DNA of 55,737 nt from an uncultured Muribaculaceae bacterium (GTDB lineage Bacteria; Bacillota_I; Bacilli_A; RF39; UBA660): the NCBI GenBank assembly GCA_964458035.1, contig CAYWFZ010000005.1, positions 1-55,737 of the forward strand. The letters are read 5' to 3'. This document shows, piece after piece, positions 7,262-7,536 of the stretch. Both the position numbers and the translations under genes were made by a program. The notes beneath the pieces were generated by a model. That model searched no databases, was not told the origin of the DNA, and saw only the letters and a list, made by a program, of their open reading frames with translations. Position 1 is the stretch's first letter. Each line of letters starts with the position of its first letter.

Positions 7262-7343
7262 GGTGAGAAGCAGATTATCTCTTGGGTATGATGCTTACCA
7301 CATAGTTTTTGCATCTTTATTCAGAAGAATAAAGATGTTTTTT
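7262..7343 (+). ncRNA. Candidate antisense (type I antitoxin) sRNA 1, about 80 nt
   Basis: Promoter, 5' stem-loop and terminator hairpin GCATCTTTATTC-AGAA-GAATAAAGATGT with T tract; homologous to 44555-44643; ends inferred. Confidence 0.65.
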
Positions 7344-7344
7344 A

Positions 7345-7416
7345 TTACCCAAATAGTATGAGTAATAAAATAGTAATCGTTTGGATTAGCATTATTAGGT
7401 CTTTCAAATTAATCAC
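7345..7416 (-). CDS. Small hydrophobic peptide, candidate type I toxin (MINLKDLIMLIQTITILLLILFG)
   Basis: GTG start 5 nt after SD AAAGAGGTG; single TM-like stretch; SD is complementary to upstream 7475-7484; paralogue at 44648-44722. Confidence 0.72.
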   Translation of the reverse strand: MINLKDLIMLIQTITILLLILFG

Positions 7417-7536
7417 TATATCACCTCTTTACTTCAAAAAAACAAAACCCCCTGAATTTTTCACCCAAGGTATTAGAGGTGATAAACATCTTTTCTGCTT
7501 CTCGAGTGTGTATACTAACACGCCCATATAAAATAA

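Follow-up and report, generated by a model that had tools for sequence, protein, structure and literature searches.

The nearest described counterpart of the element reported here is bsrG/SR4, a toxin-antitoxin (TA) pair of type I from the Bacillus subtilis SPbeta prophage described by Jahn and Brantl in 2013 (PMC3834814). According to their account, helix P1 joins nucleotides (nt) 1-35 of the 296-nt bsrG mRNA to nt 232-262, and SR4, which overlaps the 3′ part of bsrG, contacts the 3′ arm of P1 (PMC3834814). In the bsrG-SR4 complex that they describe, nt 1-33 are single-stranded, nt 34-57 refold, and the duplex holding the Shine-Dalgarno (SD) sequence grows from 4 to 8 bp; this tighter SD pairing lowers translation, and decay by RNase III follows (PMC3834814). 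Here we analyze a 55,737-nt stretch from an uncultured bacterium labeled Muribaculaceae (GTDB lineage Bacillota_I; Bacilli_A; RF39; UBA660; assembly GCA_964458035.1, contig CAYWFZ010000005.1, positions 1 to 55,737), called the window below, and describe two loci in it, locus 1 and locus 2, in which a short peptide mRNA and a convergent small RNA (sRNA) appear to follow a similar design.

In hok and aapA1 mRNAs, an interaction between the two ends keeps the full-length molecule inert, trimming of the 3′ end activates it, and the antitoxin RNA binds the 5′ region of the processed form. Long-distance 5′-3′ interactions in the toxin mRNAs of hok/Sok and aapA1/IsoA1 are described as uncoupling translation from transcription (PMC9841398, PMC5416894, PMC6733600), and the loci in the window would resemble these systems in having a 5′-3′ long-distance interaction in a type I toxin mRNA. 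An earlier note on this DNA had proposed that the 3′ tail of the peptide mRNA unlocks its SD and that the sRNA prevents this, and had set this against the inhibitory 5′-3′ pairing of hok and aapA mRNAs. The emphasis was misplaced in that the design has a precedent: bsrG/SR4, as described, works the same way (PMC3834814), and by analogy we regard the mechanism proposed here as a variant of bsrG/SR4 and not a new principle.

Leader segments, their copies in the sRNA and their antisense

The two loci share one plan, with the peptide mRNA on the − strand and a convergent sRNA on the + strand. The − strand carries, in order, a promoter, a 5′ untranslated region (UTR) of about 90 nt, an SD, a hydrophobic open reading frame (ORF) of 23 or 24 codons and a 12-bp hairpin. 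An opposing promoter on the + strand, recognized by eye, leads to an RNA of some 85 nt whose 3′ end is formed by the same hairpin and six to eight U. Judged by this layout, each locus is a type I TA-like module, the peptide being a presumptive toxin.

Three segments of the 5′ UTR, A, B and C, are complementary to three segments beyond the hairpin. In locus 1, 7265-7274 (GAGAAGCAGA) is without mismatch the reverse complement of 7494-7503, which on the − strand is segment A, where the mRNA begins; 7281-7287 (CTTGGGT) is likewise complementary at every position to 7463-7469, segment B (CUUGGGU, − strand); and 7290-7301 forms 12 pairs, 2 of them G-U, with 7479-7490, segment C (GAUGUUUAUCAC, − strand). 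In locus 2, again on the − strand, segment A at 44805-44817 pairs perfectly with 44558-44570 (13 bp), segment B (CCUUUUGGCU) at 44769-44778 perfectly with 44573-44582 (10 bp), and segment C at 44788-44800 with 44583-44595 (13 bp, one G-U). The segments were delimited from the sequence together with the alignment described below (A and C), covariation (B) or RNAalifold (C). All six pairs read by eye in the earlier note are thus present, and so is the permuted order from which it had argued: the segments run A-C-B in the 5′ UTR and C′-B′-A′ in the presumed tail of the mRNA (7265-7301 in locus 1 and 44558-44595 in locus 2, − strand), so that C:C′ and B:B′ cross and imply a pseudoknot or a pair of alternative folds.

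Because the repeats are inverted in the DNA, the 5′ sequences of the two RNAs are alike, not complementary: the sRNA starts with A, B, C and the mRNA with A, C, B, using the same sequences. The 5′ UTR is complementary only to the antisense of the sRNA gene, i.e., to the tail of a read-through mRNA. In the 11 copies of the module in this genome, the energy of the 5′ UTR-tail duplex had a z of -1.5 to -6.9 against 200 dinucleotide shuffles, and 0-16 of the 200 shuffles per copy reached the observed value, the worst case being C21_6592 with 16. For the wider family, 44 unique loci remained after duplicate and unparsable rows were removed, and 42 of them were aligned (MAFFT, structure not used). 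Over these 42 loci the mean z of the 5′ UTR-tail duplex was -3.6, with z < -2 in 36 (40 mononucleotide shuffles each). The 5′ domain of the sRNA showed no complementarity to the 5′ UTR beyond chance (mean z +0.49, z < -2 in 0 of 42 loci), in line with the earlier proposal that the sRNA mimics the 5′ UTR.

The pairing is kept while the sequences change. Helices A:A′ and C:C′ together had 95.9% of their cells paired in the 42 sequences, compared to 88.5 ± 0.5% in shuffles, and both sides had changed at 12 of 25 pairs and in 59 cells (6.7 and 15.7 in shuffles). None of 500 shuffles reached any of the five measures, and when the partner was slid by 1-3 columns as a control, 37-54% of cells were paired. 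Examples are GAG/CUC versus GUG/CAC; GAAGCA versus GAAACA, with both sides changed in two loci; and UUAUCAC/UUACCAC versus UAAUCAC/UAACCAC.

Segment B is hypervariable, with about ten variants (CUUGGGU; CUCGGGU / CUCAGGU; CCUUUUGGCU; UCUUUGGCU; GAGGCU; AAGAGGCU; AGAGACU; UAGGGA; UUCGGGU; UCGGAC; CCUUUGGGAU), each matched within its own locus. When the partners were permuted among 11 cluster representatives, the summed length of shared words fell from 77 for the cognate arrangement to 50.3 ± 4.1, and 0 of 100,000 permutations reached 77; the cognate partner was the unique best in 7 of the 11 rows and best or tied in 9. On alignment A2, from which L137 and L111:5421-5714 were left out on account of duplicated tail segments, B:B′ was paired in 77.7% of cells (shuffles, 60.4 ± 1.8%), with 38 double-changed cells (15.6) and a covariation score of 0.302 (0.115), none of which was reached by any of 500 shuffles; about ten rows lying 1-2 columns out of register in MAFFT were kept in. 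Since this hypervariable segment is matched locus by locus, its partner must be encoded in the same locus, where the only complementary sequence is the other strand. The retention of pairing under sequence change, noticed earlier in two loci, extends on homologues to all three helices in 42 aligned loci, and the sequences support a conserved, covarying complementarity of the 5′ UTR to the antisense of the sRNA gene.

The hairpin that the two transcripts share (7311-7338 in locus 1, 44610-44638 in locus 2) is followed by a U tract on one strand only, as had been noticed by eye. All 42 loci have the tract on the sRNA strand and none has it on the mRNA strand, where the sequence past the hairpin is A/C-rich with a mean of 0.8 U per 8 nt. 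The terminator scan of both window loci likewise called the hairpin with its U tract on the + strand only. These sequences support a one-way terminator in all 42 loci, at which the sRNA (7262-7345, about 85 nt, in locus 1 and 44555-44645 in locus 2, + strand) would end, whereas the mRNA, for which the hairpin would be internal, would extend through the sRNA gene. Taken together, 5′-3′ pairing and mimicry of the leader by the sRNA are well supported, and we hold this part of the interpretation with considerable confidence.

The anti-SD helix, the proposed switch and its alternatives

The anti-SD of locus 1 (UAUCACCUCU, the reverse complement of 7474-7483) can pair with the SD region (AGAGGUGAUA, the reverse complement of 7419-7428); the corresponding parts of locus 2 are at 44780-44793, within a C and anti-SD region of 44780-44800, and at 44727-44740 (all − strand; from sequence and RNAalifold, with folding for all but the SD region of locus 1). 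On a dedicated alignment of the 5′ UTR, RNAalifold returns an anti-SD:SD helix of 9 pairs, 7 of which have compensatory changes. The 3′ half of segment C belongs to the anti-SD, and helix C overlaps it, as the earlier note had it, by about 6 nt in locus 1. With 6-7 anti-SD bases in common, C:C′ and the covarying anti-SD:SD helix are mutually exclusive. When A:A′ with C:C′ was forced and compared to A:A′ with anti-SD:SD, the mean difference was -1.4 kcal/mol and 22 of 42 loci favored C:C′, so the modeled states appear to be nearly iso-energetic. The fraction of SD positions unpaired was 0.41 in the C:C′ state and 0.16 in the minimum free energy (MFE) fold. A:A′ closed the molecule in the unconstrained folds of 11 of 11 genome copies.

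The near-invariant 5′ UTR sequence AAAGAUGC (window 7479-7493, − strand) has a further complement in GCAUCUUU (7311-7322), the 5′ arm of the shared hairpin. The same holds in locus 2 and in all 42 aligned loci; both sides are invariant, so covariation is uninformative here. For RNAs of the locus 2 type that are truncated at the hairpin, RNAfold predicts pairing of AAAGAUGC with GCAUCUUU and an opened hairpin.

Our preferred explanation, to which we assign a probability of roughly 55%, is a type I TA-like module built like bsrG/SR4, in which pairing with the tail would produce a more translatable fold and the sRNA would compete for that tail. The peptide mRNA would start at segment A with its ribosome binding site closed by the anti-SD:SD hairpin, pass the shared hairpin, a terminator for the opposite strand only, and continue across the sRNA gene, its 3′ tail thereby being the antisense of the sRNA. 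A:A′ would then close the molecule at the extreme 5′ end, B:B′, hypervariable in sequence, would link the loop of the anti-SD hairpin to that of a tail hairpin, and C:C′ would remove the 5′ half of the anti-SD; once complete, the transcript would owe to the three contacts a fold that is stable and more open to translation. The sRNA, which has A, B and C as well and matches the tail without mismatch as its complement, would outcompete the 5′ UTR, which on displacement would return to the anti-SD:SD hairpin, and RNase III would probably cut the long sRNA-tail duplex. Taken by itself, an activating or stabilizing role of the tail, with the sRNA resetting the leader, has about even chances.

Segment B lies in the loop of the anti-SD hairpin, and by drawing B′ falls in that of the tail hairpin, which would make B:B′ a contact of two loops, beyond the reach of folding programs. 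The RNAalifold consensus of the sRNA contains the terminator only and gives no support to a 5′ hairpin drawn by eye. A more elaborate version, which we offer tentatively, is a three-partner RNA switch with B as an address code: the loops of the mRNA leader and the sRNA would compete for B′ by kissing, the leader would be captured only after the full tail has been made, and the diversity of B would insulate paralogues from each other. If this were true, capture would proceed from B:B′ to A:A′ and C:C′ and open the anti-SD hairpin, transcription and translation would be uncoupled by 'structural processing' without an RNase, and the antitoxin would be a molecular mimic of the toxin leader.

In locus 1, B also has a predicted local pairing partner, the conserved G-rich motif UUCAGGGGG at 7448-7456 (− strand; from folding, the terminator scan and the alignment). 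Within window 7450-7470 (− strand), B and UUCAGGGGG form an 8-bp hairpin followed by GGUUUUGUUUUUUU, which the scan flags as terminator-like; the U run is missing in locus 2, and the G-rich motif is kept in all subfamilies. On this predicted fold, the hairpin could be a leader attenuator in the locus 1 subfamily.

Several results weigh against the preferred explanation. In pseudoknot-free folds, the SD of the full-length mRNA is mostly paired, with a mean probability of being unpaired that moves from about 0.13 to 0.22 (11 loci), and the MFE fold of locus 1 retains anti-SD:SD and forms A:A′ alone. The anti-SD helix is weak on alignment A2 (77.9% versus 74.9%), in a test that included a wrong pair (27/110) and out-of-register rows and for which the dedicated 5′ UTR alignment is the better basis. 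For B:B′, the number of pairs with double changes was reached by 76 of 500 shuffles and that of further pair types by 58 of 500. A single A:A′ mismatch occurs in three loci (C21_6592, L108 and L111:5067). Because the loci are paralogues and relatives of each other, significance is overstated by the shuffle controls; about 8-10 independent compensatory events can be counted by eye. No convincing terminator lies past the tail in the two largest subfamilies, locus 1 included, and no sequencing run recorded as RNA was found to contain the stretch; contigs of conjectural RNA origin compared with it were short pieces of a repeat family, broken at the repeats and uninformative as to ends, strand or read-through. 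Of the earlier interpretation as a whole, the covarying pairing, the one-way hairpin, the sRNA that copies the leader and the exclusion of anti-SD:SD by C:C′ have held up, while the read-through mRNA is presumed and the unlocking itself is less well served, SD accessibility rising only modestly. The modeled geometry agrees with a leader that the tail opens, and an activating effect is plausible.

The alternative that survives best, though we consider it unlikely, takes the 5′-3′ pairing as real and denies that it activates translation. The pairing would shield the RNA ends from exonucleases and hide the tail, giving a stable reservoir, or it would be a lock of the hok/aapA1 kind, and the sRNA would only trigger decay. 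A:A′ is present in all 11 full-length MFE folds and covers the first mRNA bases while the SD stays largely paired, and the anti-SD state is at least as stable as C:C′ in 20 of 42 loci, locus 1 among them; sequestration of the 5′ end for stability is moreover described for par RNA I (PMC7472228). What this alternative leaves unexplained is C:C′, which must be selected because it covaries and which removes 6-7 nt of the anti-SD, so that the contact targets the anti-SD and not the SD. The lock in particular would be released by 3′ trimming, which would delete the sole binding site of the sRNA and be senseless for an antitoxin. Membership in hok/Sok or aapA/IsoA was considered and rejected: the sRNA shows no complementarity to the 5′ UTR, and it is the anti-SD rather than the SD with which the interaction competes. 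Unlike in hok and aapA1, the antitoxin here would bind the 3′ partner of the interaction, the partner that competes with the anti-SD.

We think it improbable that the mRNA stops at the shared hairpin or close to it, no tail RNA being made and the likeness of leader and sRNA being maintained by a self-pairing read-through form of the sRNA or by a common partner. Such a reading draws on the strong hairpin, with its 12-bp stem, and on the fact that most loci lack a clear terminator past the tail. The GUGAAGCAG subfamily does carry on the mRNA strand of each of its 11 loci, recognized by eye, an inverted repeat (CTTGAA...TTCAAG or weaker) and a T run, about 20 nt past A′ and overlapping the sRNA -35 box. 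A lenient terminator scan past the tail matched 27 of 44 loci, mostly with all-A/U stems that we do not trust; only the CTTGAA type looks real, and locus 1 has a weak all-A/U stem only. The absence of a tail is nonetheless hard to reconcile with the hypervariable B matched per locus, which is explicable only by a partner from the same locus, where the two antisense strands are the only complementary sequences. Of the two possible read-throughs, that of the sRNA is made the less likely by its terminator, which has a full U tract in each of the 42 loci, and U is depleted after the hairpin on the mRNA strand of every one of them.

That the inverted repeats act as DNA, whether by bounding a small mobile element or by serving as a site of recombination or of cruciform formation, with the RNA reading incidental, is very unlikely. 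The family is multi-copy and sometimes in tandem, and A and A′ are inverted repeats of 10-13 bp about 230 bp apart, as such a reading would have it, but conservation reaches past the repeats into both promoters, there are three segments in permuted order, and a consistent U/C transition in C yields a G-U pair, an RNA signature (column pair 30/281, U-G in 28 of 42). Least probable of all is a par/Fst-like mode, in which the sRNA would pair directly with the 5′ UTR and start region of the mRNA through the repeats and both would use a bidirectional terminator: convergent promoters, a shared hairpin, an SD-hiding 5′ stem-loop and a K-D-L-like N-terminal motif in some peptides recall it, but the repeats are inverted and not direct, in none of the 42 loci does the sRNA-5′ UTR duplex do better than shuffles, which contradicts it, the terminator is one-way in all 42, and no toxin family of Pfam or NCBIfam matches eight peptides at E up to 10.

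Promoters, peptides and distribution of the family

The mRNA promoter of locus 2 was found by promoter scan (TTGTTA-17-TATAAT, 44853-44825, − strand), and that of locus 1 has a predicted -10 box recognized by eye (TAGTAT, 7512-7517, − strand). The sRNA promoters on the + strand were both recognized by eye, as TTGTAT (7226-7231) and TGnTATAAT (7247-7255) in locus 1, absent from the promoter scan list, and as TTGTAT (44520-44525) and TATACT (44543-44548) in locus 2; these -10 and -35 boxes are conserved in the alignment of the loci. Upstream of the toxin promoter, the copies in this genome share a conserved motif, ACAGAATATTCGACAAAT (window 7536-7552, + strand). A motif at this place is present in most loci, the largest subfamily having two copies of TTGTCGA(C/G), and it may be an operator.

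The peptide ORF starts with GTG and encodes 23 aa in locus 1 (7345-7416, − strand, stop included) and starts with ATG and encodes 24 aa in locus 2 (44648-44722, − strand, stop included). An SD with an ORF of 23-30 aa that has a polar N-terminus and a hydrophobic helix is present in 40 of the 44 unique loci. Peptides of the largest subfamily (e.g., L047, L108, L093) end in ...ILKLL before a TAG stop or in ...ILKLLWQ / ...LLWP, a C-terminal Trp being present or not because of a TGG/TAG polymorphism. The copy C26_18200 (contig C26, L009:1458-1705) is frameshifted, with no SD-linked ORF found, and its divergent A segment GAAAAGCAAGAG is still perfectly matched between the mRNA 5′ end and the sRNA.

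This genome (1.72-Mb assembly, 71% complete) contains 11 copies of the module; of its 13 hairpin matches, two were left out as non-members (C26_24573 and C37_10404). Within the genus, 12 of 22 genomes have a match. Scanning public genomes by pattern, together with a profile search, added 36 near-full-length loci from public contigs, almost all in gut assemblies labeled uncultured Bacilli, Erysipelotrichaceae or Firmicutes. A sample of the order gave matches in 3 of 301 genomes and 2 of 127 genera, a lower bound with two candidates scored per genome. Three genus loci lacking the toxin part (L038, L042 and L057+) and ten loci that the parser could not segment were left out, and C36 was left out of the per-locus comparison of segments. 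On contig C21 (6422-7116, L002), two modules that belong to different subfamilies follow each other in tandem at a distance of about 440 bp, and in L137 and L111:5421-5714 the A′ segment is duplicated in the promoter-proximal region of the sRNA.

Within the window, Rfam gives a single match at gathering score, to an unrelated T-box, and E-value scans of locus 1 and four loci gave chance matches only (E ≥ 0.24). Searches of Pfam and NCBIfam with the eight peptides returned only chance matches to unrelated families. A text-based literature search, not made by sequence and with the T1TAdb family lists (PMC8594479) outside its coverage, found no description of the module family. The family is new and unannotated, and no Rfam, Pfam or NCBIfam model covers the module.

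The next gene on the toxin strand past the sRNA promoter is 6792-7139 (−), encoding a protein of 115 aa, in locus 1 and 42871-44403 (−), encoding a membrane-anchored protein of 510 aa, in locus 2. An unterminated toxin mRNA would enter these genes. Elsewhere in the window, the T-box leader (RF00230, 96.7 bits, 5252-5452, −) lies directly upstream of an 842-aa ORF (2694-5222, −) that resembles valyl-tRNA synthetase, which looks like an ordinary arrangement.

Relation to described systems and significance

The module shares with bsrG/SR4, as the latter is described, a convergent antitoxin that overlaps a toxin mRNA of about 290 nt in its 3′ part (the extent of the mRNA here being presumed), an antitoxin terminator mirrored as an internal stem-loop of the mRNA and, given the presumed read-through, a 5′-3′ helix with its 3′ arm inside the region complementary to the antitoxin. 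It differs in having no sequence relation to it, as judged by the lack of an Rfam, Pfam or NCBIfam family, in a contact split into three permuted segments with pseudoknot topology, one of them hypervariable, and in a competing element that is a classical anti-SD helix of 9-10 bp. The peptides have 23-30 aa compared to 38 in bsrG, there are up to 11 copies per genome, and the module is known from sequence alone.

The likeness to par (fst RNA I / RNA II of Enterococcus faecalis pAD1) and the Fst/Ldr group, in the account of PMC7472228, lies in the convergent promoters and shared terminator hairpin, the SD-hiding 5′ stem-loop, the sequestered extreme 5′ end and the small hydrophobic peptide. The same account gives par direct repeats, complementary RNA 5′ ends and a bidirectional terminator (PMC7472228), whereas here the repeats are inverted, the 5′ ends alike and the terminator one-way. 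The peptides also differ from Fst toxins in lacking PXXXG and the charged C-terminal tail, some ending in ...LLWQ. Membership in par/Fst was rejected on the sRNA-5′ UTR values given above, the missing U tract on the mRNA strand (0 of 42) and the absence of an Fst signature. With timP/TimR of Salmonella, as described (PMC11228461), the module would share independence from RNase processing, two exclusive folds and a pseudoknot-dependent active fold destabilized by the antitoxin; in that description, the timP pseudoknot and sRNA site lie within the 5′ UTR, with no 3′ tail (PMC11228461).

What is new here is an unrelated, unannotated family, a three-part permuted contact, a hypervariable segment, a high copy number and evidence from natural covariation. 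Across about 44 loci, one helix occurs in roughly ten variants, all of them matched, which amount to a ready set of compensatory mutants. If the bsrG/SR4-like explanation is true, this would be a second, independent family of that design and the first supported by natural covariation, and control of a toxin leader from the 3′ end, combined with an antitoxin that mimics the leader, would be a recurrent solution in Firmicutes. The finding adds an unannotated, abundant family of small presumptive toxins to uncultured gut Bacilli with small genomes.

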